Positions 1,274-21,232 of a stretch of DNA of 32,000 bases are shown here, one piece after another (position 1 is the first letter of the stretch; each line of letters begins with the position of its first letter). Both the position numbers and the translations under genes were made by a program. Under the pieces are notes generated by a model. It saw only the letters and a program-made list of their open reading frames with translations. It had not been told where the DNA came from and did not search any database. Location of the stretch: assembly GCA_963816325.1 (NCBI GenBank), contig CAWFKC010000003.1:19643-51642 (forward strand), written 5' to 3'. This DNA comes from an uncultured Actinomycetota bacterium (GTDB taxonomy: Bacteria > Actinomycetota > Actinomycetes > Propionibacteriales > Nocardioidaceae).

Positions 1274-2287
1274 TCAGGCGCCGGCGCGCTCGGCGGCGCG
1301 CAGGTCGCGCCGCAGCTCCGGCGGCAGCGCGAAGATCAGCGACTCCTCGGCCGAGTGCACGGACTCGGCGTCGGGGAACCCGCGCTCGGCGAGGTAGGCC
1401 AGCACGCCCTCGACGAGGTCGTCGGGCACCGAGGCGCCGGAGGTCACGCTCACCTTCGAGACGCCCTCCAGCCAGGCGTCGTCGATCTCTCCCGCGTCGT
1501 CGACGCGGTGGGCCGCCGCGGCGCCCGCCTCGAGCGCCACCTCGACCAGGCGCACCGAGTTGGAGGAGTTGCCCGAGCCGACCACGATCACCAGGTCGGC
1601 GTCGTGGGAGATCTCCTTGATCGCCATCTGGCGGTTCTGGGTGGCGTAGCAGATGTCGTCCGACGGCGGGTCGAGCAGCAACGGGAAGCGCTCGCGGATG
1701 GCGTCGACGATGGTCAGGGTCTCGTCGACCGACAAGGTGGTCTGGGAGAGCCAGGACACCTTCGCCGGGTCGCGGACCTCGACGTTCGCGACGTCCTCGG
1801 GAGACTGGACGAGGTGGATGCGCTCGGGCGCCTCACCGGAGGTGCCCTCGACCTCCTCGTGCCCGGCGTGGCCGATGAGCAGGATGTCGTAGTCCTCGCC
1901 CGCGAAACGGCGGGCCTCGTGGTGCACCTTGGTGACCAGCGGGCAGGTGGCGTCGATGGTCTTGAGGTGCCGCTCCGCGGCCAGCGCGTGCACCGCCGGG
2001 GACACCCCGTGCGCGGAGAACACGACCGTGGAGCCTTCCGGGACCTCGTCGAGCTCCTCGACGAAGATCGCGCCGTTGTCCTCCAGGTCGTGGACCACGT
2101 GCTTGTTGTGCACGATCTGCTTGCGCACGTAGACCGGCGCGCCGTACAGGTCGAGCGCCTTCTCCACGGTGATCACCGCGCGGTCCACGCCGGCGCAGTA
2201 GCCGCGCGGCGCTGCGAGCAGCACGCTTCGGCCCTCCGCCTCGCCGGCGGACAGTACGGGAGGAATCCCCAGGTCCGAGGTGCTCAT
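1274..2287 (-). CDS. ispH: 4-hydroxy-3-methylbut-2-enyl diphosphate reductase (housekeeping IspH/LytB)
   Basis: Track ORF 1274..3526 is over-extended. The homology-consistent start is ATG at 2287 ([11 protein letters not shown]...), giving 337 aa. The three cluster cysteines sit in IspH context ([33 protein letters not shown]), with HAGHEEVEG and GSGNSSNS. Confidence 0.95.
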
Positions 2288-2323
2288 GCCCCCATGGTAG
2301 GTGGTGTCCCCTAGGGTGCGTGC

Positions 2324-5225: not shown

Positions 5226-6191
5226 TCACCCGTGCAGAGCCGGGACCAGCTCCTGCTCGGCGAAGCGAAGGAAGTCCGCCTGGTGCTCGTCCCCGATCTG
5301 GACCACCGCGACGTCGGTGAAGCCGGCCTTCTCGAAACCCCGGACCGCGTCCACGATGGCGTCCACGTCCGGGCCGCACGGGATGGACCCGGCCACATCC
5401 TCCGGCCGGACGAACTGGGTGGCCCCGGCGAACGCGGACGGCCCCGGGAGCTCGGCGTTCACCTTCCAGCCACCGCCGAACCAGCGGAACTCGCGGTGCG
5501 CGCGCTCGACGGCCCGGTCCCGGTCGGGGTCCCAGCAGATCGGCAGCTGGCCGATCTTGCGCGACTCGCGGCCGCCGGCCGCGTCGTCCCAGGAGCTCAC
5601 CAGCGACGGCTCCGGCTCAACGGCGATGAGGTGGTCCGCCTTCGGCGCGAAGCTCCGGACCGACTGCTCCCCCGAGACGGCCACGCCGATCCGGACCGGC
5701 TCCTGCGGCAGGTCCCAGAGCTTGGCGGAGTCGACGCGGAAGTGCTGCCCGGCGAAGTTCACGTAGCCGCCGTCGAGGAGACCGCGGATGATCGTCAGCG
5801 CCTCGTCGAGCATCTCGTGGCGCACGTTGACCGGCGGCCAGCCACGACCGACCACGTGCTCGTTGAGGTTCTCCCCGGCGCCGAGACCGAGGGTGAAGCG
5901 GTTGTCGCTGAGCAGCCCGATGGTGGCGGCCTTCTGGGCGACGAGGGCCGGGTGGTAGCGCAGGATCGGGCAGGTCACGTAGGTCATCAGGTCGACCCGC
6001 TCAGTGACCTGGGAGACCGCGCCGAGCATGCTCCAGGCGTAGCCCGCGTGGCCCTGCTCCTCCAGCCACGGGAAGTAGTGGTCGCTCATCACCTCGAAGT
6101 CGAAGCCGGCCTGCTCGGCCGCCGCGGCGTAGCGGACCAGTTCGCGCGGCCCGGACTGCTCGGTCATCAACGTGTAGCCGTACCTCGGCAT
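5226..6191 (-). CDS. LLM-class F420-dependent oxidoreductase (luciferase-like, G6PDH-related subfamily)
   Basis: 321 aa, with a GAAGGGAGAG Shine-Dalgarno upstream of ATG 6191. MPRYGYTLMTEQSGPRELVRYAAAAEQAGFDFEVMSDHYFPWLEEQGHAGYAWSMLGA and LGLGAGENLNEH are typical of the TIM-barrel LLM family members annotated as F420-dependent. Confidence 0.85.
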   Translation of the reverse strand: MPRYGYTLMTEQSGPRELVRYAAAAEQAGFDFEVMSDHYFPWLEEQGHAGYAWSMLGAVSQVTERVDLMTYVTCPILRYHPALVAQKAATIGLLSDNRFTLGLGAGENLNEHVVGRGWPPVNVRHEMLDEALTIIRGLLDGGYVNFAGQHFRVDSAKLWDLPQEPVRIGVAVSGEQSVRSFAPKADHLIAVEPEPSLVSSWDDAAGGRESRKIGQLPICWDPDRDRAVERAHREFRWFGGGWKVNAELPGPSAFAGATQFVRPEDVAGSIPCGPDVDAIVDAVRGFEKAGFTDVAVVQIGDEHQADFLRFAEQELVPALHG

Positions 6192-6368
6192 CGACTCTCC
6201 CTTCGTCGCCTTCGTCGCCGGCCCCGTACCCCGAACGAGCAGCCACGATGCTCGGCCACGGCTCGCTCGCGCGTCCCCCGACGCGCGCGACGGGCGCCTC
6301 CACGGTCGATTGCCGCGGATGCGCCCGCCGTCACGACAGTGCGCCCGGTCAGACCCGGGGCGGTCGCG

Positions 6369-6473
6369 TCAGGCCCGGGTGCGGGCTAGATCCGCCATGA
6401 TGTAGTCGATCATCAGCGCAACCAGCGACGCTGCGGACAGGCTCAGCAGTGCGGCCCTGGGCTTCTTTCCCAT
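6369..6473 (-). CDS. Putative 34-aa small membrane protein
   Basis: Below the track length cutoff and read by hand: GAGGAGGA, a 4-nt spacer (CACC), then ATG, encoding MGKKPRAALLSLSAASLVALMIDYIMADLARTRA*. It has a basic N-terminus plus one TM-length hydrophobic stretch, and GC3 is about 80%. There is no homology evidence. Confidence 0.4.
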   Translation of the reverse strand: MGKKPRAALLSLSAASLVALMIDYIMADLARTRA

Positions 6474-6699
6474 GGTGTCCTCCTCGAGGATCTGCCGGGG
6501 TGGCCTCTCCACCCACGCGGAGTGCGCCCGTGCCCCGGATCACAGGTCCTAAACGGGGCCCCGGAAAGTCGCGCGCTGCTGGTCCACCCGGCGGGCCGAC
6601 TGTGAGCCGGGGCCCGCCGACGGGTAACTTCGCACCCGTCCGGTGCGCGGGCCTGCGCCCGCCCGGATGGCCGGGACGACAAGGGGTAATGAGGACAGC

Positions 6700-9225
6700 A
6701 TGGTGGCAACCGGTAGCGAGCACGTCGACCGCGGACCGTGGCGGGACGACGACTCGCAGGTGCCGCACCGGGTGCTGGTGCTCTCCGCCGACATGGGCGG
6801 CGGCCACAACGCCACCGCGAACGCCCTCGAGGAGGCCGTGGCCCGCCTGTGGCCCAAGGCCGAGGTGCGCCGCCTCGACTCGCTCGACGTCATGGGGCCC
6901 GGCATCGGCCCCCTGTTCCGCATGATCTACGTCGGCAACGTGGAGACCACGCCCTGGCTCTACGAGTTCTTCTACTCCAGCCTCTGGCGCAAGCGCTGGT
7001 TCGCCCGCGCCTCCAAGCGGTTCACCGGCAGCTGGTGCGGCCGGATGCTGAGGTCGCACCTCGAGGCGTTCGACCCGACGGTGATCGTCTCGACGTACCC
7101 CCTCGGCACCTCCGGGCTGGAGTGGTTGCGCCGGCACCGGGGACTCGCGGTGCCGGTCGGCGCCTGGATCTCCGACTTCGCGCCCCACCCGTTCTGGGTC
7201 TACGCCGGGATCGACGCGAACTTCGTGATGCACGAGGCCGCGCTCCCGGTGGCGCGGGCCGCGGAGCCGCGCGCCCGCGTGGAAGTGTGCGCCCCGCCGG
7301 TGGTGTCGAGGTTCCGCCCCGGCGACCCGGCGGCAGCCCGCCTCCGACTCGGCCTGCGGGCCGACGCCTTCGTCGTGCTGCTCTCCTCCGGCTCCTACGC
7401 CTTCGGCGACGTCGCGACCACGGTCCGGGCGCTGGTCGCGGCCGGCGACCAGGTCCAGGTCGTCGCCGCCTGCGGCAGGAACGCCGAGGTCAAGCGGGCG
7501 CTGGAGCAGATGGGGCTGCCTCGCGAATCCCTGGTCGCCCAGGGCTGGACCGACGACATGGCCGGCCTCGTGCAGGCCGCCGACGTGGTGCTCACCAACG
7601 CCGGCGGGGCCACCGCCCTGGAGGCGCTGGCGTGCGGCGTGCCGGTGCTCACAGCCTGCCCGATCGCCGCCCATGGCCAGGCCAACGCCGACCTGATGAC
7701 GGTGGCGGGACTGACCGAGCTGTGCGCGGACCACGAGCGCCTGACCGCGTTCGTGCGCGCCGCGGTCCGGGACCGCTCGGTGCTCGAACCGCTGCGCCGC
7801 CGCATCCGCGCCCACAACGACGCCCACGACCTCGAGAGCGGCCTGCGCCGGCTGGCGTACGTCGGGACCGGGCCGGGCTCGCCCCCGCAGGTGGACCGGC
7901 CGTGGCGGGCGCGCTCCGCCGACTCGTTCTTCGGACAGGTGGAGACCGCCGCGGTGCCGCAGGAGCTGGGCGCCGTGCTCGAGCTGGGCCGGCAGCACGG
8001 AGCCTCGCTGGCCGTCGAGGAGCTGCGCCGCGCGCTCGCGCCGCGGATCCCCGGGCTGCCTCCGGCCCGCCGCGAGCTGGTGCGTGGCCGCCGGCTCGGT
8101 TGGCGGCTGCACGGCTCCGCCGACGTCGAGGTGCACGTCCAGGAAGAGGTCGTCGACCCCGGCGCCCCGGAGAGCGCGGTGTGGGACGCGGTCGGCGACT
8201 TCTGGTCCCGGACGCTGCCCGAGGGCCGACCCTCGTGGGAGATGCTGCTGGTGCGCGGCCGCGCGCACGGTCCGGACCTGTTCGCGGTCAAGATGCACCA
8301 CTGCCAGGCCGACGGGATCTCCGCCCTCGGCCTCCTGGACCGGCTGCTGGACCCCGAGCCGGGCGACCGGCTCGTGGAGCGTCGCTCGGTCGCCTCGTCG
8401 GTGACGAAGCGGATGCGCAGTCGCTACCCGCTGATGGTGGCGCGCGGCCTGCTCGCCCTGGCCGGCCGCGGTCTGGCTCCGGCGCACCGGCTCAACGGCA
8501 GCCACGGCCGCGCCGACCGCGACTTCGTCGGCGTGCCGCTGCCGTGGTCGGAGGTGCGCCGGCTCGCCGGCGAGCTCGACCTGCGCCCCCACGAGCTGGT
8601 GATCGCCCTGGTCTCCGACGCCTTGGACCGGCTGCTGCGCCCGGCCGGGCTGCTGACCGCCGGCGCCTCGGGCAGCCGCCCGCTGCGCGCGATGGTGCCG
8701 GTCGCCATGCGGCCGGCGAGACTGGACCGGGTCGCGTTCAACTGGACCGGTTCGCTGGCCGTGGACCTGCCCACCGGGCCGATGCCGTTCCCCGAGCGCG
8801 CCCGGGTGGTCCGCGACGAGCTGCACCGCCGGGCCGGTCGCGGTGAGGCGCCCGCGGCGTCCGCGGTGATGGCCGTCGCCGGCCGGCTTCCCGCGGCCGT
8901 GCACCGCCGGGTGGCGCGCAGCGTCTACACCAGCAAGTTCTTCAACACCGTGGTGAGCTACATGCCGTCCGCACGCGGCCCGCGCAGCCTGGCCGGGGCT
9001 CCGGTGGAGGTGGTCTACCCGGTCCTCCCGCTGGCCCCGCGCGTGCCCCTGACCATCGGCGTGGTGGTCTCCGGAGGCGCGGTGGGCACCGGCATCCTGC
9101 TCGACCGCAGCCTCGGGGTGCGGCGCGAGGACGTGGAGGACGCCGTACGCTCCGCGTTCGCCGACGCCGGCGGGCGGCTGCCGGACCTCGCCGAACCACC
9201 GCAGGTCGTGGGCGGCGAGCCGTGA
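6700..9225 (+). CDS. Fusion protein: MGDG-synthase/UgtP-like GT28 glycosyltransferase (N-terminal) joined to a WS/DGAT acyltransferase (C-terminal)
   Basis: Within track ORF 6643..9225 I prefer ATG 6700 (GGGGTAATGAGGA upstream), giving 841 aa. GT half: VLVLSADMGGGHNATANALEEAV and NAGGATALEALACGVPVL...HGQANADL. WS/DGAT half, from about nt 7945: ADSFFGQVE, catalytic HHCQADG at 8296-8316, and FNTVVSYMPSARGPRSLAGAPVEVVYPV. No stop or frameshift separates the halves. Confidence 0.85.
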   Translation: MVATGSEHVDRGPWRDDDSQVPHRVLVLSADMGGGHNATANALEEAVARLWPKAEVRRLDSLDVMGPGIGPLFRMIYVGNVETTPWLYEFFYSSLWRKRWFARASKRFTGSWCGRMLRSHLEAFDPTVIVSTYPLGTSGLEWLRRHRGLAVPVGAWISDFAPHPFWVYAGIDANFVMHEAALPVARAAEPRARVEVCAPPVVSRFRPGDPAAARLRLGLRADAFVVLLSSGSYAFGDVATTVRALVAAGDQVQVVAACGRNAEVKRALEQMGLPRESLVAQGWTDDMAGLVQAADVVLTNAGGATALEALACGVPVLTACPIAAHGQANADLMTVAGLTELCADHERLTAFVRAAVRDRSVLEPLRRRIRAHNDAHDLESGLRRLAYVGTGPGSPPQVDRPWRARSADSFFGQVETAAVPQELGAVLELGRQHGASLAVEELRRALAPRIPGLPPARRELVRGRRLGWRLHGSADVEVHVQEEVVDPGAPESAVWDAVGDFWSRTLPEGRPSWEMLLVRGRAHGPDLFAVKMHHCQADGISALGLLDRLLDPEPGDRLVERRSVASSVTKRMRSRYPLMVARGLLALAGRGLAPAHRLNGSHGRADRDFVGVPLPWSEVRRLAGELDLRPHELVIALVSDALDRLLRPAGLLTAGASGSRPLRAMVPVAMRPARLDRVAFNWTGSLAVDLPTGPMPFPERARVVRDELHRRAGRGEAPAASAVMAVAGRLPAAVHRRVARSVYTSKFFNTVVSYMPSARGPRSLAGAPVEVVYPVLPLAPRVPLTIGVVVSGGAVGTGILLDRSLGVRREDVEDAVRSAFADAGGRLPDLAEPPQVVGGEP

Positions 9226-10130
9226 TCCCAGGTTTCCTCGTCGCCGTCCCGGCCGCGGTGGCCGCGGCCGCCGCCTTCGGGGGCGCCGGGGTCCTGCAGC
9301 ACCGCGCCACCCACCAGGCGCCGGACCGGCCGGCGCTCAGTCCCCGGCTGCTCCTCGACCTGATCAAGCTCAACGCGTTCCGCTCCGGCGTGATCCTCGG
9401 CGGTCTCGGCTTCCTGCTGCAGGTGGTGGCGCTGCGCTTCGGGCCGCTCGGCCTGGTGCAGCCCCTGCTGGTCACCGGTGTGCTCTTCTACCTGGTCTTC
9501 GGCGCCGCCTACGCGCACCGGCACGTCGACCGCGGGCTGGTCGCGGGCACGCTGATGGCGATCGCGGGGCTGACCGCGTTCCTCGTGGTCAGCCGCCCGG
9601 TGCCCGGTCACGGCGAGTTCGGCTCGGCCGCCGCGCTGCCGCTGGGCGTCGGGCTGATCGGCGTGGTGGTGCTCTGCCTGCTGGTGGCCAGCCGGGTCCC
9701 ACCGGCGATGCGGTCGGTGCCGCTGGCGGTGGCCACCGCGGTGTTCTACGGCGTCACCGCCGGGCTGGTGCGCAGCGTCACCGAGGGTGGGATCGGCTGG
9801 CAGGCGCTCCACCAGTGGGAGCTCTACGCGCTGGTCGTGGTCGGACCCACCGGGTTCCTGCTGAACCAGAACGCCTTCCAGCAGGGCAACGTCGGTGCGC
9901 TGGCACTCGGCACGATCACCGTGGGCGACCCGCTGGTGGCGATCGGCATCGGCGTGGCGTGGTTCGGCGAGGTCATCTCGACCGGGCCGTGGCACATCCT
10001 CGGCGAGATCCTGGCGCTCGCGGTCATGGTCGGCGGGGTCTTCCTGCTCGCCGCCCGCGCCCAGCGGCTCACCGAGCGGATGGAGGCGCAGCGCCCCGTG
10101 CCGCCCGGCATGTGCGGGGCCACCCCGTGA
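9222..10130 (+). CDS. Polytopic membrane protein (about 9-10 TM), DMT-superfamily-like
   Basis: 302 aa. The GTG start overlaps the upstream stop (GTGA 9222-9225). Hydrophobic segments of TM length are evenly spaced (FLVAVPAAVAAAAAFGGAGVL, GVILGGLGFLLQVVAL, LVQPLLVTGVLFYLVFGAAY ...). The family assignment is tentative. Confidence 0.7.
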   Translation: MIPGFLVAVPAAVAAAAAFGGAGVLQHRATHQAPDRPALSPRLLLDLIKLNAFRSGVILGGLGFLLQVVALRFGPLGLVQPLLVTGVLFYLVFGAAYAHRHVDRGLVAGTLMAIAGLTAFLVVSRPVPGHGEFGSAAALPLGVGLIGVVVLCLLVASRVPPAMRSVPLAVATAVFYGVTAGLVRSVTEGGIGWQALHQWELYALVVVGPTGFLLNQNAFQQGNVGALALGTITVGDPLVAIGIGVAWFGEVISTGPWHILGEILALAVMVGGVFLLAARAQRLTERMEAQRPVPPGMCGATP

Positions 10131-10879
10131 CCGTCCTGCGCGAGGCGTCGGTCCTGCTCACCGGCGCCTCCTCCGGCATCGGCCGCGCCGCCGCCGTCGC
10201 GCTGGCCGGCAAGGGCGCCCGGGTGACGCTGACCGGCCGGGACCGCGAGCGGCTGGAGCGGCTGGCGGCCGAGGTCGGCGGGCGGGCGGTCCCCGCCGAC
10301 CTCGCCGACCCTGCCGACACCGACCGGCTCGCCGAGGCCGTGCTCGCCGACGGGGTCCCCGACGCGGTGGTGCACAACGCCGGCGTCGGCCACGTCGGGG
10401 CCGCCGAGGCCACCGGCCCGGCCACCCTGGAACGGCTGGTCCGCGTCAACCTCGCCTCGGCGGTGCAGCTGACCCAGGCGCTGCTGCCCGGCATGCGCGC
10501 CCGCGGCGGCGGCCACCTGGTGTTCGTGACCTCGATCGCGGCCCACCTGGGCGTGCCCGGGGAGTCGGCCTACGCGGCGACGAAGGCGGCCCTGGCGGTC
10601 TATGCCGCGAGCCTGCGCAGCGAGCTCTGCGGTGCCGGGATCCGGGTCACCGAGGTGGCGCCCGGCATCGTCGACACCGAGTTCTTCGCCCGCCGCGGCG
10701 CGCCGTACGAGCGCCGCTTCCCGCGGCCGATGCCGGCGGCGAGGGTGGCCGACCGGCTGGTCGACGCGCTGGAGCGCGACCGGGCCGAGGTCGTGGTCCC
10801 GGCATGGCTGCGGCTCCCCATCGCGCTGAGGTCAGTGGCTCCGAACCTCTACGCGCGGATGGAGAGCCGCTGGGGCTGA
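10127..10879 (+). CDS. Classical short-chain dehydrogenase/reductase (SDR)
   Basis: Track ORF 9815..10879 is over-extended. The GTG at 10127 overlaps the upstream stop (GTGA), giving 250 aa. Motifs are VLLTGASSGIGRAAA (TGxxxGxG), HNAGV (NAG) and S...YAATKAAL (catalytic Ser-Tyr-Lys). Confidence 0.88.
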   Translation: MTVLREASVLLTGASSGIGRAAAVALAGKGARVTLTGRDRERLERLAAEVGGRAVPADLADPADTDRLAEAVLADGVPDAVVHNAGVGHVGAAEATGPATLERLVRVNLASAVQLTQALLPGMRARGGGHLVFVTSIAAHLGVPGESAYAATKAALAVYAASLRSELCGAGIRVTEVAPGIVDTEFFARRGAPYERRFPRPMPAARVADRLVDALERDRAEVVVPAWLRLPIALRSVAPNLYARMESRWG

Positions 10880-10903
10880 GCCCCTGTGCTCGACCGGCTC
10901 AGC
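10875..10903. terminator. Hairpin shared by the convergent SDR and hpnH 3' ends
   Basis: GCTGAGCC (10875-10882) pairs with GGCTCAGC (10896-10903) across a 13-nt loop. The two arms contain the two stop codons (TGA 10877-10879; TCA 10899-10901 on the plus strand). There is no U-tract, so a terminator role is only plausible. Confidence 0.35.
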
Positions 10904-11909
10904 TGCCGGCGGCCGCCCGGATGGTCTCCTTCAGCGAGCCCATCGTGGCCATCACGGCGGTCGGCTCGTAGCCGCAGTGCGCCATGCAGTTGCCGCAGCG
11001 CGGGTCCTTGCCGCGCCCGTAGGCGTCCCAGTCGGTGGTCTCGACGAGCTCCTGGTAGGTGGAGGCGTAGCCGTCCTCCATCAGGTAGCACGGCTTCTGC
11101 CACCCGAACAGCGAGTAGCTCGGGATGCCCCAGGCGGTGCAGCCGAAGTCGACCTTGCCCTCGAGGAAGTCCAGGAACAGCGGCGAGTGGTTGAGGCGCC
11201 ACTTCTTGCGGTTCCCGCCGGCGAACGCCTTGCTGAACAGCTCGCGGGTCTCGGCCACGCCCGGGAAGTGGTCCTGGTCGGGAGCCTTCTCGTAGGCGTA
11301 GGCCGGGGAGATCTGCATGTTGTCGACACCGAGCTCGTCGTTGCAGAAGTTCAGCACGTCGATGATGTTCTGCGGCGTGTCGTTGCTGAAGAAGGTGGAG
11401 TTGGTGTTGACCCGGAAGCCCTTCTCCTTCAGGAACTTGATCGCCTCGACTGCCTCGTCGAAGACGCCCTCCTGGCAGACCGACTCGTCGTGGCGCTCCT
11501 TGAGCCCGTCGAGGTGGATCATGAACGACAGGTACGGCGAGGGCTTGAAGTCGAACTTGTCCCACCACTTGCGGATCAGCATGGCGTTGGAGCACAGGAA
11601 GACGTACTTCTTGCGCTTGACCAGCTCGTTGACGAGCTTGTCGATCTCGGGGTGCATCAGGGGCTCGCCGCCGGCGATGGAGACCATCGGCGCACCGCAC
11701 TCCTCCATCGCGTCGAGCGCCTGCTGGACCGGCATCCGCCGGCGCAGCTCGTCGGCGGGGTGCTGGATCTTCCCGCAGCCCGCGCACTGCAGGTTGCAGG
11801 CGAACAACGGCTCGAGCTCGACGAGCAGCGGGAACTTGTCCCGCTTCTTGAGCTTCTGCTTCATCAAGTAGGCCCCGATGGCGAGGGACTGGCGTACGGG
11901 CATGCTCAT
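10899..11909 (-). CDS. hpnH: Adenosyl-hopene transferase, radical SAM (HpnH)
   Basis: 336 aa. It has the radical-SAM CNLQCAGCGK motif and extended HpnH-typical sequence (FPLLVELEPLFACNLQCAGCGKIQHP, SIAGGEPLMHPEI, FRVNTNSTFF, CTAWGIPSYSLFGWQKPCYLM, CGNCMAHCGYEP). The ATG overlaps the upstream stop (ATGA 11906-11909). Confidence 0.95.
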   Translation of the reverse strand: MSMPVRQSLAIGAYLMKQKLKKRDKFPLLVELEPLFACNLQCAGCGKIQHPADELRRRMPVQQALDAMEECGAPMVSIAGGEPLMHPEIDKLVNELVKRKKYVFLCSNAMLIRKWWDKFDFKPSPYLSFMIHLDGLKERHDESVCQEGVFDEAVEAIKFLKEKGFRVNTNSTFFSNDTPQNIIDVLNFCNDELGVDNMQISPAYAYEKAPDQDHFPGVAETRELFSKAFAGGNRKKWRLNHSPLFLDFLEGKVDFGCTAWGIPSYSLFGWQKPCYLMEDGYASTYQELVETTDWDAYGRGKDPRCGNCMAHCGYEPTAVMATMGSLKETIRAAAGS

Positions 11910-13414
11910 GCGGTGCGTACCTCCTTGGGTAGCGTGAATTTCACGTTCTCGGTGACCACCTCGCGGTTTCGGCTGCGCACCGGGCCCAGCCCCGCCAGCG
12001 CGTCGACCACGTCGTCGACCAGCGCCTGGGGAGCGGACGCCCCCGCGGTGATTCCTACTGTCTTCGCCCCCACCAGCCAGGAGAGGTCCACCTCGTGCAC
12101 GTCGTCGACGAGGTAGGCCGGCTTCCCGAGACGGGTTGCCGTCTCGACGAGCCGCTGGCTGTTGGAGGAGTTCTGCGACCCGATCACCAGCACCAGGTCG
12201 GAGTCCACCGCCACCGCGCTGAGCGCGTCCTGGCGGTTGGTGGTGGCGTAGCAGATGTCGTCGGTGGGCGGCGCCTGCAGCTTCGGGAACCGCGCACGCA
12301 GCGCCTCGACGACGCCCTCGACCTCGTGCGCCGACAGCGTGGTCTGCACGAGGTAGGAGACCCGCTCGGGGTCCTCCACCTCGACGTGCGCCACGTCCTC
12401 GGCGGTCTCCACGAGCACCGTGCGGTCGGGCCGCTCCCCCATCGTGCCCTCGGTCTCCTCATGGCCGGCATGGCCGATGAACACGATGGTGTCGCCGCGG
12501 TCGCCGAACCGGCGGACCTCGGTGTGCACCTTGCTGACCAGGGGGCAGGTGGCGTCGATGATGTCGAGGCTGCGGCGCTGGCCGTCCTCCCACACCTGGG
12601 GGGCGACGCCGTGCGCCGAGAAGACCACGGTGGCGCCCGGGGGCACCTCCGCCAGCTCCTCGACGAAGACCGCGCCGCGCTCCTGCAGGTCGTGCACCAC
12701 ATGCTGGTTGTGCACGATCTGCTTGCGGACATAGACCGGCGCACCGCGCTGCTCGAGCGCGCGCTCCACCACCTGGATCGCCCGCTCCACCCCGGCGCAG
12801 AACGACCGCGGCCCGGCCAGCAGCACCTCGCGCGGTGCTACCGCGTCCGCCCAGGCGAGCAGCGTGGGCGCGACCTCGCTGAGGCCGCGGAGCGCGGTGC
12901 GCATCCGGCCGACGGTGGCCGGGGTGAACAGCGGCTCGGCGGAGGTGTCGGCGACCACCCGCACCACCAGGCTCGGCCGCTTGCCGTCGAGCAGCCAGGC
13001 CGACTCCATGTCCACGGCCAGCGCCCCGGTGGCCGCCAGCGCCTCACGCGAAGCACCGCTGACCACCTTGGCGGCGCTGGTGACCGGACCGACCCAGACC
13101 CGGTGGCCCGCGCGGCGCAGCGCGGCGGCCGCGAGCGGCGCCCCCGGCACCGGGACCGCGGTCCCGTCGGGCCCGCGGACCTCGTCGGCCACCACCACGT
13201 CGCCCGGCTGGAGCCGCGCGTCGAGGGCGCCGGCGAGGCCGACGACGGCCACCGCGTCCGCGTCCTGCAGGCGCGCGCTCTGCGCGGCCCGGACGGAGCG
13301 TTTCTGGCCCATGCCGGTGCGCACGACGCTGCGCTCGGGGAGCGCGGGGGCGCCCCTGCGCAGAGCGCGTTCCTCCATGCGCATCGGAGTGCAGAAAACC
13401 ACGTTCGGTCTCAT
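11906..13414 (-). CDS. hpnG-ispH: Fusion protein: HpnG-like hopanoid-associated nucleosidase/phosphorylase (N-terminal, about aa 1-194) joined to IspH (C-terminal, about aa 195-502)
   Basis: Track ORF 11906..14902 is over-extended. ATG 13414 has a GGAAGGAG Shine-Dalgarno and an ATGA overlap with the shc stop, giving 502 aa. The N-terminal part is PNP_UDP_1-like (AVAVVGLAGALD, ALAVDMESAWL). The C-terminal part is a complete IspH ([50 protein letters not shown]). No stop lies between the domains. Confidence 0.88.
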   Translation of the reverse strand: MRPNVVFCTPMRMEERALRRGAPALPERSVVRTGMGQKRSVRAAQSARLQDADAVAVVGLAGALDARLQPGDVVVADEVRGPDGTAVPVPGAPLAAAALRRAGHRVWVGPVTSAAKVVSGASREALAATGALAVDMESAWLLDGKRPSLVVRVVADTSAEPLFTPATVGRMRTALRGLSEVAPTLLAWADAVAPREVLLAGPRSFCAGVERAIQVVERALEQRGAPVYVRKQIVHNQHVVHDLQERGAVFVEELAEVPPGATVVFSAHGVAPQVWEDGQRRSLDIIDATCPLVSKVHTEVRRFGDRGDTIVFIGHAGHEETEGTMGERPDRTVLVETAEDVAHVEVEDPERVSYLVQTTLSAHEVEGVVEALRARFPKLQAPPTDDICYATTNRQDALSAVAVDSDLVLVIGSQNSSNSQRLVETATRLGKPAYLVDDVHEVDLSWLVGAKTVGITAGASAPQALVDDVVDALAGLGPVRSRNREVVTENVKFTLPKEVRTA

Positions 13415-15312
13415 GTGCGGCTCCTTCCCAGGACGCGCCCCAAGGCGCTGATGGGGAACACGACTCGGTAGAGGTGGTAGGCGATGTAGAAGTCGCCGGG
13501 AAAGCCGGTGCCGGTGAACTGCGGCTCGTCCCAGCCGCCGTCCTCCCGCTGGTGGTCCACCAGCCACTGGACCCCGCGCGCCACCTCGCCGGTCTCCGTC
13601 TCGCCGGCCGCGTGCAGCGCGAGCAGCGCCCACGCGGTCTGCGACGGGGTCGACTCGCCGCGACCGCGCCAGGCGTCGTCCTCGTAGGACCTCAGGTCCT
13701 CGCCCCAGCCGCCGTCGTCGTTCTGGTGCCGGCGCAGCCAGTCCACGGCCCGCCGGATCGCGGGGTGGCTGCCCGGGATCCCGACCTCGACGAGGGCGGG
13801 AACCGCGGCACCGGTGCCGTAGACGTGGTTGGCGCCCCAGCGCCCGAACCAGGAGCCGTCGTCCTCCTGCTGGTCGAGCAGGTAGACCACGCCTCGTCGT
13901 ACGGCGTCGGAGTCGGCCATCCCCTCGCGGGCCAGCGACTCCACCACGTGGGCGGTGACGTCCGCGCTCGGCGGGTCGATGACCGCTCCGAAGTCGCAGA
14001 ACGGCAGCTTGTAGGCGATCTCGCGGGTGTTGTCGACGTCGAAGGCGCCCCAGCCGTCGTTGCCGGACTGCATGTCGACCAGCCACCGGACCGCGCGCCG
14101 CACCGCCGCGTCGGTGTCGGCGCCGGGGGCGCAGCGCCGCAGCGCCATGATCACCTCGGCGGTGTCGTCGGTGTCGGGGTAGAGGTCGTTGTCGAACTCG
14201 AAGGCCCACCCGGCGGCGGGGGTGTCCGGGCGCTTGACCGCCCAGTCGCCCTTGACGCGGATCTCCTCGCGCAGGAGGTAGTCGCGGGCCTGCGCCATCG
14301 CCGGGTGGTCGGGCTCGAGGCCGGCGTCGCCGAGCGCGACGGTGGCCAGCGCGGTGTCCCACACCGGCGACTGGCAGGCCTCGATCCAGCGCACCGGCCC
14401 CTCGGCGGACTGCTCGACGACGGTGAAGCGCTCCCAGCCCTCGATGCCGCGGGCCAGCACCGGGTGGTCCAGCGGGTAGCCGTAGGCGTGCAGCGCCATC
14501 AGCGAGTAGACCCACGGCGGCTGGATGCCGCCCCAGCAGCCGTCGGCCTCCTGCCGCTCGACCACCCAGTCGGCCATCTTGCGCAGCGCCTTGGTGCGCA
14601 GCGCCTTGACCGGCCGGCGCTCGTAGGCGTGCAGCGCCTTGTCGAGCCCGACGAACGCGCGCGCGAGCAGGTCGCGCTCCCGGGTGGAGGCGGCGGGCCG
14701 GCCGGTACGCAGCTCGTCGATGTCGACACCGAGGTCGCGGCGAGGGCGCAGCGCGGAGAGCATCGTGAGGGGGCCGACGGTCTGGCGGGCCCAGCAGGCG
14801 AAGTCGTAGAGGTTCAGCGGGACCTGCGGCGGCAGGAACACCAGCTCCGGCGGCAGCGCGGGCACGTCGTCCCAGGACCACTGGCCGAACAGCGCCAGCC
14901 ACATCTTGGTGAAGACCCGGAGCCCCTCGAGGCCGCCGGCGGCGAGCACCACCTCACGGGCCCGGCGCATGTGCGGCGCGTCGGGCGAGTCCCCGGCCAG
15001 CTTCAGGGCGATGTAGGCCTCGGCGGTCGTCGACGCGTCGGCCGGGCCGCCGTGGTAGATCGCCCAGGACCCGTCCTCGCGCTGGTGGCGCCGGATCCAG
15101 CGGGCGGTGGCCTGGGTCTGCTCCTCGGTGCGGATGCCGAGGAACTGACGCATCATCAGGTCCTCGGCGTCCATCGTCACGTTGGTCTCCAGGACGCCGC
15201 GCCAGTAGCCCTCGGCGTCCTGCCGGCCGAGCAGGTGCTGCACGGCCCGGTCCAGGGTCGCGTCCGCCTCGGGCACGTCGACGCACAGGTCTTCGCGCTC
15301 GGCAAGCGCCAT
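13411..15312 (-). CDS. shc: Squalene-hopene cyclase
   Basis: Track ORF 13411..16002 is over-extended. ATG 15312 (MALAEREDLCVD...) gives 633 aa. It has the DxDDTA motif (YPDTDDTAEV), multiple QW-type repeats (QREDGSW, QEADGCWGG, QSGNDGWG, QEDDGSWFGRWG, QNDDGGWG, QREDGGW) and GWAFEF. Confidence 0.96.
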   Translation of the reverse strand: MALAEREDLCVDVPEADATLDRAVQHLLGRQDAEGYWRGVLETNVTMDAEDLMMRQFLGIRTEEQTQATARWIRRHQREDGSWAIYHGGPADASTTAEAYIALKLAGDSPDAPHMRRAREVVLAAGGLEGLRVFTKMWLALFGQWSWDDVPALPPELVFLPPQVPLNLYDFACWARQTVGPLTMLSALRPRRDLGVDIDELRTGRPAASTRERDLLARAFVGLDKALHAYERRPVKALRTKALRKMADWVVERQEADGCWGGIQPPWVYSLMALHAYGYPLDHPVLARGIEGWERFTVVEQSAEGPVRWIEACQSPVWDTALATVALGDAGLEPDHPAMAQARDYLLREEIRVKGDWAVKRPDTPAAGWAFEFDNDLYPDTDDTAEVIMALRRCAPGADTDAAVRRAVRWLVDMQSGNDGWGAFDVDNTREIAYKLPFCDFGAVIDPPSADVTAHVVESLAREGMADSDAVRRGVVYLLDQQEDDGSWFGRWGANHVYGTGAAVPALVEVGIPGSHPAIRRAVDWLRRHQNDDGGWGEDLRSYEDDAWRGRGESTPSQTAWALLALHAAGETETGEVARGVQWLVDHQREDGGWDEPQFTGTGFPGDFYIAYHLYRVVFPISALGRVLGRSRT

Positions 15313-16328
15313 CAGTAGTCCCTTCCGCTCAACTTGTGGGTCAGCTTGGTGAGGTCCTCGTGGACGTCGGCGGGAAGGCCGAGCCCGTCGAGGATCCGCA
15401 GTGCCGCCTCGGACTCCCGTCGTACGGCGTCCTCGGCCCAGGACTTGCCGCCGGCCACCTCGATCAGGCGGGCCACCTCGGCCAGGTCGTCCTCGGACCA
15501 GGGCTCCTCGGCGGCGTACCTCTCGGCCAGCCGCTGCGCCTCCGGAGTGCCGGACGTCAGCGCGGCCACCACCGGAAGCGACTTCTTGCGCGCCCGCAGG
15601 TCGGACCAGACCGGCTTGCCGGTGCGCTCGGGAGCGCCCCAGATGCCGAGTAGGTCGTCGACGAGCTGGAAGGCCAGGCCGAGGTGCATGCCGTAGTCGG
15701 CCAGCCCCAGCGCGAGCGCGGCCGGGGCGTCGACCAGCACGGCACCGAGCGAGGCGGCGCACGCCAGCAGGGCGCCGGTCTTGCCCTCGGCCATCGCGAC
15801 GCACTCCTCGAGGCTGACCTCCTGGCGCGACTCGAAGGCCAGGTCCTCGGTCTGCCCCGCGATCAGCCTGCGGGTGCAGGCGTTGAGGCAGCGGATCGCC
15901 CAGGCGGTGGTCGGACCGCTGGTCTCGGCCAGGATCTCGTTGGCCAGCGCCAGCAGCGCGTCGCCGGCGAGGATCGCCGAGGAGGTGCCGAACGCCGACC
16001 ACGCGGTCGGCCGGTGCCGCCGCTCCTCGTCGCCGTCCATCACGTCGTCGTGCAGCAGCGAGAAGTTGTGCACCAGCTCCGCGGCCACCGCGGCGGGGAC
16101 GCCCGCCTCGGCGGGTGCACCGGCCGCGCGGGCGGACAGCACGGCGAGCACCGAGCGCACGCCCTTGCCGCCGCCGGCCCCGGGCTGCCCGTCGGCGTCC
16201 CAGTAGCCGAGGTGGTAGCCGCAGACGAACGCCGTGCGCTCGTCGAGGCGGTCCAGGGCAGCGCGCATCGACGGCTCGACGAGCTCGCGGGTGCGCTGCC
16301 AGATGTCCTGGCTGACGGTCTCGGTCAT
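15312..16328 (-). CDS. Polyprenyl diphosphate synthase (FPP/GGPP synthase family; hopD-type)
   Basis: ATG 16328 (MTETVSQDIWQ...) gives 338 aa. The first Asp-rich motif is LLHDDVMDGDEERRHRP and the second is FQLVDDLLG. The position between hpnE and shc matches my recollection of the Streptomyces hop cluster. Confidence 0.9.
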   Translation of the reverse strand: MTETVSQDIWQRTRELVEPSMRAALDRLDERTAFVCGYHLGYWDADGQPGAGGGKGVRSVLAVLSARAAGAPAEAGVPAAVAAELVHNFSLLHDDVMDGDEERRHRPTAWSAFGTSSAILAGDALLALANEILAETSGPTTAWAIRCLNACTRRLIAGQTEDLAFESRQEVSLEECVAMAEGKTGALLACAASLGAVLVDAPAALALGLADYGMHLGLAFQLVDDLLGIWGAPERTGKPVWSDLRARKKSLPVVAALTSGTPEAQRLAERYAAEEPWSEDDLAEVARLIEVAGGKSWAEDAVRRESEAALRILDGLGLPADVHEDLTKLTHKLSGRDY

Positions 16329-17686
16329 GGCGTCCTCACGATCTGGTGCTGGTCGGAGGTGTGGCCCGGGCCGCCGACCATGCCGCCGGCCATGAGACCA
16401 CTGCGGACAGCGCCCTCCATCGTGTCGGGCCACCCGGTGTCGGTCCAGGCGCCGGCCAGCACGAACCCGGGCCAGCGGGTCGCCGGTCCCGGCCGCAGCG
16501 CCCGGCTGCCGGCACGCTGCTCGAAGGTCGCCCGCGGCTCGCGGGTGACCCAGCTGTCGACGACGTTGGCCTGCGCCGCGGCCGGAAGCAGCGCGGCCAG
16601 CCCTCTCAGCTGCGTGTCCCGCAGGTCGGCGTTGACCTGGCCGAGCAGCGGGTTGGCGGCCGAGACCGACACGGTGAGGTACTGGCCGTCGACGCCCGCC
16701 GCGGCGGTCCGGTCGAAGAACCAGGGCACCGGCGACTCGATCGCGGCCGCGAACGGCAGGTCGGTCACGCGCCGGTCGTAGCGGACGTGCACGTTGTAGA
16801 TCGCCGACGCGCCCAGGCCGGCCCACCGGTCGCGGTCCGGGCAGGCTTCCGCGGGAGCGAGCTGGGCCGCCTGCTGGTGGGGGACGGCGAGCACCACGGT
16901 CGCGGCCTCGACGTCGCCGTCGGCGGTGCGCACGACGTAGCCCTCGTCGAGCCGAGCGATCTCCTGCACCTTGCGTCCGACGTGCCACTCGATGCCGACG
17001 CGGTCGAGCAGCGCGCCGGTGGCGGTGTGGTGGATCTCGGAGAGCGGCACCTGAGCCACGCCGATGTCGCCGGCGTCGGCCTCCTCGAGCAGGCCGACCC
17101 GGAACACCATCGCGGCCAGGGCCAGGGAGGCCTCGTCCACGCCGATGTTGAGCGCCGCGATCGTGACCAGGCTCCACAGGTTGGCCAGCGCCCGCTCGGT
17201 CTGCCCGTGCGCCCGCAGCCAGTGGCCGAAGGTCTCCTCGTCGGTGCGCGGGTCGGTGTAGTCGACCTTGCGCAGCGCGGTCATCGCCGTGGCCGCGCGG
17301 ACCCGCTCGAGCGGGCTCAGCGCGGTGTAGCGGGCCAGCGCCACACCGAGGTGCAGGGGTGCCGGGGTGTGCGGCGTACGGCGCAGGTGCAGCACGGAGC
17401 CGCCGGGGCGCACCACCGGGATGTCCATGCGCTCCTGCACCGGGACCAGCGAGTCGACGCCGAGCCGGCGCAGCAGCGCGCGGTAGCCGGTGTAGCACCG
17501 CAGCAGCACGTGCTGGCCGGTGTCGGCGGGGTGCCCGTCGCGCGCGAAGGAGTAGACCGCTCCCCCGAGACGCGGCCGTCCCTCCAGCAGCGTGACGGCC
17601 CAGCCCTGGTCGGCCAGCGTCAGCGCGGCGCTGGTGCCGGCCAGTCCGCCGCCCACCACCACGGCACGGTTGCCGGTCGCGGTCAT
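16325..17686 (-). CDS. hpnE: Hydroxysqualene dehydroxylase (FAD amine-oxidase/phytoene-desaturase family)
   Basis: ATG 17686 gives 453 aa. It has an FAD dinucleotide fold (AVVVGGGLAGTSAALTLADQGWAVTLLEGRPRLGG) and a C-terminal GFVLAGAWTDTGWPDTMEGAVRSG. It sits after hpnC/hpnD, with ATGA overlaps at both ends. Confidence 0.88.
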   Translation of the reverse strand: MTATGNRAVVVGGGLAGTSAALTLADQGWAVTLLEGRPRLGGAVYSFARDGHPADTGQHVLLRCYTGYRALLRRLGVDSLVPVQERMDIPVVRPGGSVLHLRRTPHTPAPLHLGVALARYTALSPLERVRAATAMTALRKVDYTDPRTDEETFGHWLRAHGQTERALANLWSLVTIAALNIGVDEASLALAAMVFRVGLLEEADAGDIGVAQVPLSEIHHTATGALLDRVGIEWHVGRKVQEIARLDEGYVVRTADGDVEAATVVLAVPHQQAAQLAPAEACPDRDRWAGLGASAIYNVHVRYDRRVTDLPFAAAIESPVPWFFDRTAAAGVDGQYLTVSVSAANPLLGQVNADLRDTQLRGLAALLPAAAQANVVDSWVTREPRATFEQRAGSRALRPGPATRWPGFVLAGAWTDTGWPDTMEGAVRSGLMAGGMVGGPGHTSDQHQIVRTP

Positions 17687-18540
17687 ACGGTCCCCCTCGC
17701 CAGCGCGCGGGCGGCCACCCGGAGCTTGTCGGGGGTGCTCAGCGAGACCCGGGTGTCGCGGATCCGCTCGGGGTCGGCGGCGATCTGGTCGAGCAGCCGG
17801 CGGTAGATGCCCGCCATCGCGGCGGTGCAGGCCGCGCTGCGCCGGTCGAGCAGCGGCAGCAGCTGCAGCCCCTCGTCGTACCAGCGCGCCGCCCGCTCGG
17901 CCTCGAAGCGCACCAGCGCGGCGAGGTTGGCCGGCGGGTCCACGAGCCGGCCGCGGGAGTCGACGTCGAGCGTGCACTCGAAGCGCTTGAGGTCCTCCTC
18001 CGGTAGGTAGATGCGACCGTTGACCCGGTCCTCGCGCACGTCGCGCAGGATGTTGGTCAGCTGCAGGGCCACCCCGAGGGAGTCGGCCAGGCCCCAGGCA
18101 CGGTCGAGCCGCGGCGGGGAGTAGACGCCCACGGAGAGCCGGCCCACGGAGCCGGCGACCCAGCGGCAGTAGCCGACCAGGTCGTCGAAGGTGCCGTAGC
18201 GGTGCACGGTCACGTCCGCGCGGCAGCCGGAGACGATCTCGTCGAAACCCTCGAGCGGCACCGGGAAGCGCTCCAGCACGTCGGCGAGCGCCTGCACGAC
18301 CGGGTCCTGCGAGGCCGGGTCGAGCGGGTGCAGCTGCTTCTGGACCTCGTCGAGGCCGGCGAGCTTCTCCTCGTCGGGCAGGTCGCCGTCGCCGATGTCG
18401 TCGATGCGCCGGGCCATCGCGTAGATCGCCGACAGCGCCTGCCGCTTCGCGGTCGGCAGCAGCCGGATGCCGTAGGAGAAGTTGCGGGCCTCGCTGCGGG
18501 TGATGGCCTCGCAGACGGCGTAGGCGGTCTCGAGCTTCAT
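17683..18540 (-). CDS. hpnD: Presqualene diphosphate synthase (squalene/phytoene synthase family)
   Basis: ATG 18540 gives 285 aa: YAVCEAITRSEARNFSYGIRLLPTAKRQALSAIYAMARRIDDIGD, YCRWVAGSVG, LQLTNILRDVREDRVNGRIYLP. The hpnC versus hpnD assignment rests on gene order and N-terminal motifs. Confidence 0.85.
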   Translation of the reverse strand: MKLETAYAVCEAITRSEARNFSYGIRLLPTAKRQALSAIYAMARRIDDIGDGDLPDEEKLAGLDEVQKQLHPLDPASQDPVVQALADVLERFPVPLEGFDEIVSGCRADVTVHRYGTFDDLVGYCRWVAGSVGRLSVGVYSPPRLDRAWGLADSLGVALQLTNILRDVREDRVNGRIYLPEEDLKRFECTLDVDSRGRLVDPPANLAALVRFEAERAARWYDEGLQLLPLLDRRSAACTAAMAGIYRRLLDQIAADPERIRDTRVSLSTPDKLRVAARALARGTV

Positions 18541-19367
18541 CCGGGCCTCCTCACCGACGCGGCGACAAGCGCGCCGAGGATCTCCCGGGAGGTGGGCTTG
18601 GGCACCCCCGCCAGCGTGTCGTAGCCGTGGCGCTTGATCCCGGCGGCGGCGGCGCGGCCACCGCTGATGTAGCCGGAGACCGCGAGGCGTGCCCAGCCGT
18701 GCAGCAGCGGCACCAGGAACGCGCCGGCGTCGATCCAGGCCAGGGCCCGGTCGGTCTCGAAGCCGACGAGGTCGACCAGCTCCGCACTCGCCCGCGGGGC
18801 GGCCAGCATCTCCTCGGTGACACCGAAGGCGCGCATGTCCTCCTGGGGGAGGTAGATCCGCCCGTCGCGGTAGTCCTCGGCGAGGTCCTGCCAGTGCTCG
18901 ACGAGCTGCAGCCCGGTGCAGACCCGGTCCGAGAGCGCGATCCGGTCGGGGTCGGCCGCGCCGAAGAGGTAGAGCACGATCTCGCCGACCGGGTTGGCCG
19001 AGAGCGCGCAGTAGCCGAGCAGGTCCTCGAAGGTCGGGTAGCGGGTGACGTGCTGGTCCTGGAGGTTGGCCTCGACCAGTCGCAGCCACGGGTCGGCGGG
19101 CACACCGGAGGCCTCGACCAGGGGAGCCAGGTCGCGGACCACCTCCAGGCGCGCGCCCCGTCCGTCGTACAGGCTGCGGACGTCGTCGGCGACGTCTCGC
19201 AGCGCGCGCTCGCGGTCACCGGTCGACTCGTCGCCGAGGTCGTCGACGTAGCGCGCGTAGCGGTAGAGAGCGAGCAGGTCGCGGCGCACCCCGGCCGGCA
19301 GGATCCGCATCTGGACCGGGAAGTTCTCGTGGTGCGCCTTCTGCTCGAGCAGCTCGGCCTGGGTCAC
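18537..19367 (-). CDS. hpnC: Hydroxysqualene synthase (squalene/phytoene synthase family)
   Basis: 276 aa. The GTG start overlaps the dxs stop (GTGA). Motifs are [47 protein letters not shown] and [22 protein letters not shown]. Confidence 0.85.
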
Positions 19368-21232
19368 GAGGCACCTCCGCGACCCTGCACGAGACGGAGC
19401 CGGCGGGACGGACCGGACAGCTGGCCGCAGACCTCCTTCACGTAGGTCGCGATCCCGTGACCGTCCAGGCCGAACCGGGTGAGCAGCTCGGCGCGCGAGC
19501 CGTGCGGCAGGAACTGCGTCGGCAGGCCCAGCGGGCGCACCGGCACGTCGAGGCCCGCGTCGGCTGCCGCGAGCGCGATCCGGCTGCCCACACCGCCGTC
19601 ACGGACGCCGTCCTCGACGGTCACGACGAGACGGTGCCGGGCGACGAGGTCGAGCACGCCCTGGCTCGGCGGGTGCACCCAGCGCGGGTCGGCCACGGTG
19701 CACTCGACACCGAGGTCGGCGAGGATGCCGGCCGCCTCCAACGCCGCCGGGGCGAGTGCGCCCACACTGAGCAGCAGCACGTCCGCCGATTCGTGCCGGC
19801 GCAGGACGTCCACGCCGTCGCGGCGCTCGACCGCGTCGATCGGCGCGCCGAGGGCGGCCTTGGGGAACCGCAGGGTGGTCGGGCCGTCGTCGACCGCGAC
19901 CGCCTCGGCCAGCTCCTCCTCCAGCGTGGCGGCGTCGCGCGGGGCGGCGATCCGCATGCCGGGGACGATGCCGAGCATGGCCAGGTCCCACATGCCGTGG
20001 TGGCTCGGGCCGTCCGGCCCGGTGATGCCGGCCCGGTCGAGGACCAGCGTGACCGGCTGGCGGTGCAGGCCGACGTCCATCATGGTCTGGTCGAAGGCGC
20101 GGTTGGCGAACGTCGCGTAGACCGCGACCACCGGGTGGCGTCCGCCCATCGCGAGCGCGGCCGCGGAGGTGAGCGCGTGCTGCTCGGCGATGCCCACGTC
20201 GAAGCAACGGTCCGGGTAGCGGTCGGCGAACTTCTGCAGGCCGGTCGGGCCGAGCATCGCCGCGCTGATCGCGACCACCTCGGGACGGGTCTCCCCGAGC
20301 CCGACGAGCGCATCGGAGAACGCGTGCGTCCAGGTGGGCCGCGGCGCCGCGGACGGCTTGCCGGTCTCGCGCTCCACAACCCCGACGCTGTGGAAGTGGT
20401 CGGCCTCGTCCTGCTCGGCGGGAGCGTAGCCTCGGCCCTTCTCGGTCAGGGCGTGCACCACCACCGGCCCGGAGCAGCCGCGGGCCTGCCGCAGCACGTC
20501 GTCGAGCGCGTCGAGGTCGTGGCCGTCGACCGGGCCGAGGTAGCCGAAGCCGAGCTCGGCGAAGACGCCCTCCGTGGAGACCGGCTGCTCCTCGTGGCGC
20601 ACGGGCGCGCCGCCGAGCAGGTCCTGGACGGCGGCGTAGCCGCTGCGGTCGCGCAGCCGGGCCAGGTGCTGGGCGAGTCCGCCGATGGTCGGCGAGTAGG
20701 AGCGGCCGTTGTCGTTGAGCACCACGACGACGCGACGGTCGGAGCGACCGAGGTTGTTCAGCGCCTCCCAGGACAGCCCTCCCGTCAGCGCCCCGTCTCC
20801 GACCACCACGACCACGCAGCGGTCCCGCTCCCCGGCCAGGGTGAACGACTTGGCCAGCCCGTCGGCGTAGGCAAGGGCCGTGGAGGCGTGGGAGTTCTCG
20901 ACCACGTCGTGCACCGACTCGGCGCGGCTGGGGTACCCGGAGAGACCGTCGGCCTTGCGGAGTGCGGTGAAGCCGTCCTTCCGGCCGGTGAGCATCTTGT
21001 GGACGTAGGACTGGTGGCCGGTGTCGAAGACGATGGGGTCGTGGGGCGAGTCGAAGACCCGGTGCAGGGCCAGGGTCAGCTCGACGACGCCGAGGTTGGG
21101 TCCGAGATGCCCGCCCGTGCGGCAGACCGACGCCACCAGCCGCTCGCGCAGCTCGGCGGCGGCCCGCCGAAGGTCGACGGGAGCCAGCAGGCGCAGGTCC
21201 GCCGGGCTGCCGATGTTGTCCAGGACGTTCAT
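19364..21232 (-). CDS. dxs: 1-deoxy-D-xylulose-5-phosphate synthase (first gene of the hopanoid operon)
   Basis: 622 aa: [45 protein letters not shown], ThDP-binding GDGALTGG...LNDNG, and DVGIAEQHA. Confidence 0.95.

Follow-up and report, generated by a model that had tools for sequence, protein, structure and literature searches.

A fusion of HpnG-like and IspH domains in hopanoid operons of Actinomycetota

The 32,000-nucleotide stretch of DNA analysed here (hereafter, the window), which derives from an uncultured member of the Nocardioidaceae (Actinomycetota), carries a hopanoid operon in which a single gene appears to encode two enzymes. The N-terminal part of its product resembles the adenosylhopane-processing enzyme HpnG, and the C-terminal part resembles IspH, the reductase of (E)-4-hydroxy-3-methylbut-2-en-1-yl diphosphate (HMBPP) at the last step of the methylerythritol phosphate (MEP) pathway. 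The locus thus raises the question of whether the fusion is genuine and, if it is, what each half does. We confirmed that the fusion is real and widespread in Actinomycetota. With regard to its role, the comparative sequence evidence makes it reasonably probable, though far from certain, that the protein is a bifunctional enzyme with two canonical activities, one of them an accessory copy of IspH, encoded in a translationally coupled hopanoid operon. Full-text literature searches found no description of an HpnG-IspH fusion, and the initial annotation of this DNA had likewise known of no studied fused form. We regard the fusion as a variant of known enzymes that is visible in databases and apparently undescribed, and on present evidence the sequences of the two halves do not suggest a new reaction or system.

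The reading frame and its two domains

The fusion gene lies on the minus strand of the window (13414-11906) and translates as 502 codons plus a stop, without an internal stop; all motifs quoted in the initial annotation, which had described the same frame, were found in the translation. The G+C content at third codon positions (GC3) is 0.82-0.98 in each 50-codon window, including codons 151-225, which span the junction between the domains. As GC3 is high over the whole gene, one frame is coding from end to end. The Shine-Dalgarno-like sequence GGAAGGAG (13421-13428, minus strand) can be read six bases ahead of the ATG at 13414, and this ATG shares the bases ATGA with the stop codon of the upstream shc gene, both as had been reported initially. 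The stop codon of the fusion gene in turn shares ATGA with the start of hpnH (ATG at 11909). Judged by eye only, there is no convincing ribosome-binding site ahead of V197, where a separate IspH half could start. The single open reading frame (ORF) and its Pfam domains bear out the proposed in-frame fusion and domain boundaries, and an AlphaFold2 (AF2) model of the full protein is consistent with them.

The C-terminal domain (residues 195-502; 11909-12832, minus strand) closely resembles known IspH proteins. It matches Pfam LYTB (PF02401) at residues 197-473 with 313 bits (cut-off 24.5), covering profile positions 1-266 of 267, and scores above the NCBIfam cut-offs of TIGR00216 (312 bits; cut-off 187.85) and NF002188 (421.3 bits; cut-off 420). 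Its alignment to E. coli IspH also runs over the full length (E 5e-100, 51-52% identity). In this alignment, the [4Fe-4S] cluster cysteines C206, C290 and C388 fall on C12, C96 and C197 of the E. coli protein, while H235, H268, H318, E320, T358/T359, S416, N418 and S460 match its H41, H74, H124, E126, T167/T168, S225, N227 and S269. (The register of the E. coli numbering of the substrate and proton-relay residues was confirmed by the alignment.) All of these residues are invariant in an alignment of 116 fusions, except C290, which is at least 90% conserved. The initial description of a complete IspH with three cysteines in context thus stands. The AF2 model of this half has the three-domain trefoil fold and in Foldseek matches 3KE8/3SZU with a template modelling (TM) score of 0.95 and a root-mean-square deviation (rmsd) of 1.7 Å. 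The likeness to E. coli IspH (PDB 3KE8, 3F7T, 3SZU) therefore extends over full-length sequence, predicted fold, cluster cysteines and substrate-binding residues. Unlike the E. coli protein, the fusion has an extra 194-residue N-terminal enzyme domain, and its IspH half is a second copy, dispensable in some lineages, beside a housekeeping ispH. The latter gene (1274-2287, minus strand) adjoins xseA, and its product scores 310 bits against LYTB and 557 bits against NF002189 (cut-off 444), with Nocardioidaceae IspH proteins as nearest relatives (84-100% identity). It had been recognised initially as sharing well over half of its residues with the fused half, and we measured 57% identity. As a curiosity, given the adenosine-processing partner domain, E. 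coli IspH has been crystallised with adenosine hemisulfate present (PDB 9ql0, a 2026 entry).

The N-terminal domain (residues 1-194; 12833-13414, minus strand) gives a significant match to Pfam PNP_UDP_1 at residues 29-140 (44.7 bits; cut-off 25.1), as the initial annotation had expected. Its best NCBIfam match is the HpnG model, TIGR03468. This model was the top family in 22 of 22 N-domains tested, ahead of PRK07077, MtnN and futalosine hydrolase, with a best E-value of only 5.7e-25 over these family members. The domain profile also matches structures of methylthioadenosine/S-adenosylhomocysteine (MTA/SAH) nucleosidases (MTANs). D135-M-E137 aligns with the E-M-E of MTANs, and R152 and D156 align with the arginine and catalytic aspartate of their R...SD motif. 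E14 lies in an N-terminal motif, [AP]-[ML]-x-x-E, whose register with MTAN E12 was set by eye only. In the alignment of 116 fusions, E14, E137 and R152 do not vary, and conservation is at least 90% at D135 and D156; L178 and W188, at the junction, are also invariant or nearly so. This residue set is like the water-activating residues of hydrolytic MTANs, which hints at a nucleosidase rather than a phosphorylase. We rejected the assignment of the domain as an MtnN orthologue: the fold is common to both, but the scores against the MtnN models (NF004079, TIGR01704) are 22-25.6 bits, below the cut-off of 169.

Because the domain occupies the same operon slot as stand-alone PNP_UDP_1 genes (see below), and because TIGR03468 is consistently its top family, we assign it to HpnG, an assignment that holds on operon context and best family match. 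In common with HpnG, it has a PNP_UDP_1/MTAN-type fold, retains the MTAN-type acidic and arginine residues, and is encoded in a hop operon with shc upstream and hpnH directly downstream. It differs from HpnG in being about 20-40 residues shorter and in its covalent link to IspH. Adenosylhopane has been reported to build up in HpnG knock-outs of Methylobacterium, R. palustris and S. coelicolor (orf14).

Distribution and architectures of the fusion

The initial annotation had suggested a search for the same domain combination elsewhere. An exact look-up found no record of the fusion protein of the window itself. Nearly all of the 120 best protein matches carry PF01048 (PNP_UDP_1) plus PF02401 at about 500 residues, with 57-90% identity. 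The named matches come from Nocardioidaceae, Nakamurella, Intrasporangium, Actinopolymorpha, Micromonospora (Micromonosporaceae), Plantactinospora, Prauserella, Pseudonocardiaceae and Streptosporangiaceae, and all go under the name IspH alone in databases. A scan of one genome per species found an N-domain relative in at least 472 genomes, and we compared the best 80 of these at least 472 loci, of which 78 were assessable. A full fusion of 488-537 residues is present at 69 of the 78 species-level loci. These 69 span three Actinomycetota classes, and their carriers include Frankia, Pseudofrankia, Amycolatopsis, Pseudonocardia, Thermomonospora, Solirubrobacterales and other Thermoleophilia, and Acidimicrobiia. 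The gene context is also conserved: hpnH is directly downstream in 65 of the 69, and shc is upstream on the same strand in 65 as well (directly adjacent in 50). The N-domain family is itself large, with 467 representatives at E <= 1e-30 in a library of 50%-identity representatives. We did not use this library as a census of architectures, since the full fusions collapse into few clusters in it.

Each of the 69 fused IspH domains scores better against the fused IspH than against the housekeeping IspH of the window. In Thermoleophilia and Acidimicrobiia, the margin is merely 1-3% identity, so a single origin of the fused IspH is plausible but unproven.

The full fusion is one of three architectures found in the same operon slot. 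HpnG alone, a protein of about 200 residues, is what Saccharopolyspora, one Nonomuraea and some of the Solirubrobacterales encode between shc and hpnH. This favours the view that the N-domain is positionally orthologous with a stand-alone HpnG-type gene. The remaining form (about 290-340 residues; Micromonospora zhanjiangensis and some 20 other protein clusters) retains, beside the N-domain, no more of IspH than the first strand and the third subdomain (D3) with its C-terminal tail. It has lost the cysteines and has a degenerate SxNSSNS motif, while the catalytic residues of the N-domain are still invariant. The deletion junctions vary, leaving a stub of 'PRSVCAGVERAI', a stub of 'CYATTN.Q', or nothing. 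As these junctions differ, the erosions of the IspH core look independent, that is, the remnants appear to have arisen more than once. Since forms with the N-domain only and with the N-domain plus D3 occupy the slot, with HpnG kept throughout, the comparison indicates that HpnG is the function under constant selection and that the IspH catalytic core is dispensable.

The remnant is still being maintained, with moderate conservation of D3. The mean pairwise identity among remnant forms is 46% for D3 vs 55.5% for the N-domain; the corresponding values for full fusions are 62% and 50%. AF2 models the full fusion with a mean predicted local distance difference test score (pLDDT) of 93.4 and a predicted TM score (pTM) of 0.88, and the eroded form as a compact protein (pLDDT 88.2, pTM 0.87). 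In the model of the full fusion, helix 165-191 runs straight into IspH strand 195-201 (pLDDT 96-97), so the junction is predicted to be rigid. The HpnG module may thus have gained D3 as a structural partner.

Architecture history was read from complete genome loci and the differing deletion junctions. In a neighbour-joining tree of 240 N-domains the three architecture states are interleaved, with about 31 changes, but we set this tree aside as a guide to the direction of change because many N-only metagenome proteins may end at contig edges. We also considered whether the acidic '..EEV' tail of N-only proteins is a remnant of an IspH PKEV end. The C-terminal end of E. coli IspH, PKELR, favours this reading, but the tail is ambiguous, as its bases also serve as the GGAGG ribosome-binding site of hpnH. 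A further variant is an 820-residue metagenome protein with an HpnE-type amine oxidase (residues 13-437), an HpnG-like domain (482-591) and the C-terminal half of LytB (653-788). As hpnE is directly upstream of the fusion gene in Solirubrobacterales, this triple fusion looks like a further joining of neighbours.

Possible roles of the fused protein

We propose that the gene encodes one rigid two-module enzyme within the translationally coupled operon. The N-module would be the actinobacterial form of HpnG, of MTA/SAH-nucleosidase type, which takes adenine off the adenosylhopane made by HpnH; its family, position and conserved catalytic residues suggest this role. The C-module would be an ordinary [4Fe-4S] HMBPP reductase, since its residues and fold are fully canonical, and together with the dxs gene of the operon it would add MEP-pathway capacity when the hopanoid genes are on. 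The fusion most likely goes back to two adjacent operon genes that were joined in an ancestor belonging to Actinomycetota; the triple fusion of HpnE, HpnG and partial IspH, from a lineage in which hpnE lies ahead of the gene, fits such an origin. A structural dependence of the HpnG module on D3 probably followed, and several lineages would then have deleted the IspH catalytic core, leaving D3 or nothing. HpnG would thus be the indispensable half, with an accessory IspH activity that is redundant with the housekeeping copy.

Pathway fusions such as IspDF and HpnCD are already known, and a bifunctional IspH-ribosomal protein S1 is described by model NF000907. In all of these, as in the present case, adjacent or co-regulated pathway genes are joined in one ORF, with different partner domains, and in IspDF the joined steps are non-consecutive too. 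The protein in the window is distinct from IspH-S1: it scores 221 bits against NF000907 (cut-off 624), has no S1 domain, and carries its extra domain, PNP_UDP_1, at the N-terminus.

Several observations weigh against the explanation that we favour. The N-domain misses the curated HpnG cut-off (TIGR03468, 187.1 bits), scoring 69.6 bits within the full protein and 73.3 alone, and the same shortfall was seen in all 22 N-domains tested. The initial view of this half as HpnG-like, an adenosylhopane nucleosidase, is thus upheld by context and best family but not by the curated cut-off (70-73 vs 187 bits). The domain could also be either a hydrolase or a phosphorylase; the literature terms HpnG a putative phosphorylase, whose phosphorylated product has never been observed. 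Finally, D3 has been retained repeatedly and the interface is predicted to be rigid, which could point to a functional role of the fusion beyond co-expression.

This last point leads to a different explanation, in which the fusion is no accident of adjacency and the IspH module, or at least D3, is needed for HpnG to work. For example, it might offer a surface for docking or oligomerisation, interact with HpnH or the membrane, or sense redox or Fe-S status and so tie side-chain processing to precursor supply. The modelled arrangement of the two modules, fixed and without a flexible linker at a pTM of 0.88, would fit this idea, as would the (nearly) invariant junction residues L178 and W188. So would the eroded forms, in which separate deletion events removed D1 and D2 and left D3 in frame, D3 is still conserved (46% mean pairwise identity vs 55.5% for the N-domain) and the protein is predicted to fold. 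However, the pTM is itself a prediction, Proteobacteria and Acidobacteria keep the two genes separate, and the N-only proteins of about 200 residues in the same slot (Saccharopolyspora, Nonomuraea, some Solirubrobacterales) imply that HpnG can exist without any part of IspH. We therefore consider a functional requirement for the fusion rather unlikely. The fusion had also been read initially as a Rosetta-stone hint of coupling, which adds little here, given that operon membership already links the two genes.

The initial annotation had further asked whether the IspH half might go beyond HMBPP reduction. It could, for example, have taken on a new substrate in side-chain synthesis and reduce the HpnG product (ribosylhopane or phosphoribohopane) to bacteriohopanetetrol. 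The enzyme for the step from ribosylhopane to bacteriohopanetetrol is not established in the literature, hop clusters of several phyla have a linked ispH, and IspH, a two-electron reductase whose pocket binds phosphate, is here covalently tied to the enzyme that makes the substrate in question. Were this true, lineages with an eroded core would have switched to other end products. In a milder version, D3 would have been recruited as an obligate structural partner of the actinobacterial HpnG. The conservation data point the other way: in the 116 fusions the HMBPP-contacting residues are all invariant or nearly so, the half remains close to E. coli IspH (TM 0.95, 51-52% identity) with no sign of a pocket reshaped for a C35 lipid, and in several lineages the catalytic core was deleted repeatedly while the rest of the operon stayed intact. 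The presence of dxs in the operon also fits precursor supply. A new substrate is thus very improbable, and the suggestion of a further activity was not borne out. Least credible of all is that the long ORF is an artefact, in which an assembly or sequencing frameshift joined two genes, or that its N-terminal part is a dead, non-catalytic leftover. The N-domain is indeed short (about 190 residues vs 212-232) and scores under the HpnG cut-off, and at one related locus in an uncultured Actinomycetota bacterium (L059) the two halves are in different frames. Nevertheless, the same in-frame architecture is shared by 69 genomes of independent species and by over 100 protein clusters, GC3 is continuous over the junction, the residues at catalytic positions of the N-domain are invariant, and this domain is kept where IspH is lost. 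The comparative data thus already contradict such an origin. (At L059, positions 6001-7219, the N-domain ORF stops after 249 residues and IspH-like sequence goes on in another frame, which could reflect either a frameshifted pseudogene or a sequencing error.)

Operon context and consequences for annotation

The fusion gene is the seventh of eight minus-strand genes, in the order dxs, hpnC, hpnD, hpnE, polyprenyl synthase, shc, fusion and hpnH, and every junction overlaps by 1-4 bases. The operon is headed by dxs, for DXP synthase (19364-21232; DXP_synthase_N 316.7 bits plus transketolase domains), and continues with two squalene/phytoene synthase genes, hpnC-like (18537-19367; SQS_PSY 194 bits) and hpnD-like (17683-18540, start ATG 18540; SQS_PSY 229 bits). 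These are followed by an hpnE-like amine oxidase gene, for a squalene-associated FAD desaturase (16325-17686, start ATG 17686; Amino_oxidase 145.8 bits), and a polyprenyl diphosphate synthase gene (15312-16328; Pfam polyprenyl_synt 188.8 bits) whose ATG at 16328 overlaps the hpnE stop. Flanking the fusion gene are shc, for squalene-hopene cyclase (13411-15312, start ATG 15312; SQHop_cyclase_N/_C 425 and 464 bits), and hpnH, for the radical SAM enzyme adenosylhopane synthase (10899-11909; TIGR03470 506 bits, cut-off 225). The operon thus holds two MEP-pathway genes (dxs and the fused ispH) plus the enzymes from squalene to adenosylhopane. A scan found no promoter-like or terminator-like sites between dxs and hpnH, which is weak evidence in a genome of 73% G+C; the lone terminator-like match in the scanned region lies upstream of dxs. 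In Asanoa, Rugosimonospora, and some Acidimicrobiales and Pseudonocardiales loci, dxs is also near the fusion.

The hopanoid operon is enclosed, together with its neighbours, by the conserved housekeeping pair ispH-xseA (1274-3616) and glpX (26035-27066), a layout that is also present in a 90%-identical relative. The cluster may have been inserted into a conserved chromosomal region. Directly past the operon, three plus-strand genes (6643-10879) are convergent to hpnH. They encode a short-chain dehydrogenase (SDR; about 10100-10879), a membrane protein (9222-10130), and an 860-residue fusion of a glycosyltransferase like monogalactosyldiacylglycerol (MGDG) synthase/GT28 with a wax ester synthase/diacylglycerol acyltransferase (WS/DGAT; 6643-9225). 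Saccharopolyspora, Nocardioidaceae and Prauserella have the same trio after hpnH (loci L001, L004, L017, L032, L041, L047, L082, L084). Of 70 loci that extend far enough to show these genes, 21 have the SDR and 13 the glycosyltransferase-WS/DGAT protein. These genes are candidates for hopanoid side-chain tailoring by reduction, glycosylation or acylation.

A separate ispH next to hpnH, which had been noted initially for other hopanoid loci, is documented in other phyla: the hopanoid cluster of Rhodomicrobium (Alphaproteobacteria) has the order ispH-hpnH-hpnG-shc, and subdivision 1 Acidobacteria also have a separate ispH within the cluster. Those clusters and the operon in the window alike link the last MEP step to shc, hpnH and hpnG. 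However, the genes are separate and differently ordered there, whereas here the two functions share one polypeptide.

A recent survey that used TIGRFAM models for HpnG, I, J, K and O states that Actinomycetota lack downstream side-chain modification enzymes. Such surveys would miss HpnG in this phylum because the domain scores about 70 bits against a cut-off of 187 and is hidden in a protein named IspH. The reverse misnaming also occurs: several 200-residue proteins with PF01048 only (P0190, P0221 and many JGI entries) are called IspH by JGI or NCBI, a name apparently carried over from the fusion proteins. The main practical value of the finding is therefore a correction of annotation, in that an HpnG half has been overlooked under the IspH label. 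In addition, the natural series from full fusion, to HpnG with a vestigial IspH subdomain, to HpnG alone offers a case for the structural entrenchment of a fused partner. A corrected annotation alters the set of bacteria for which extended C35 hopanoids are predicted, and this prediction feeds into the interpretation of biomarkers and the biology of Frankia symbiosis.

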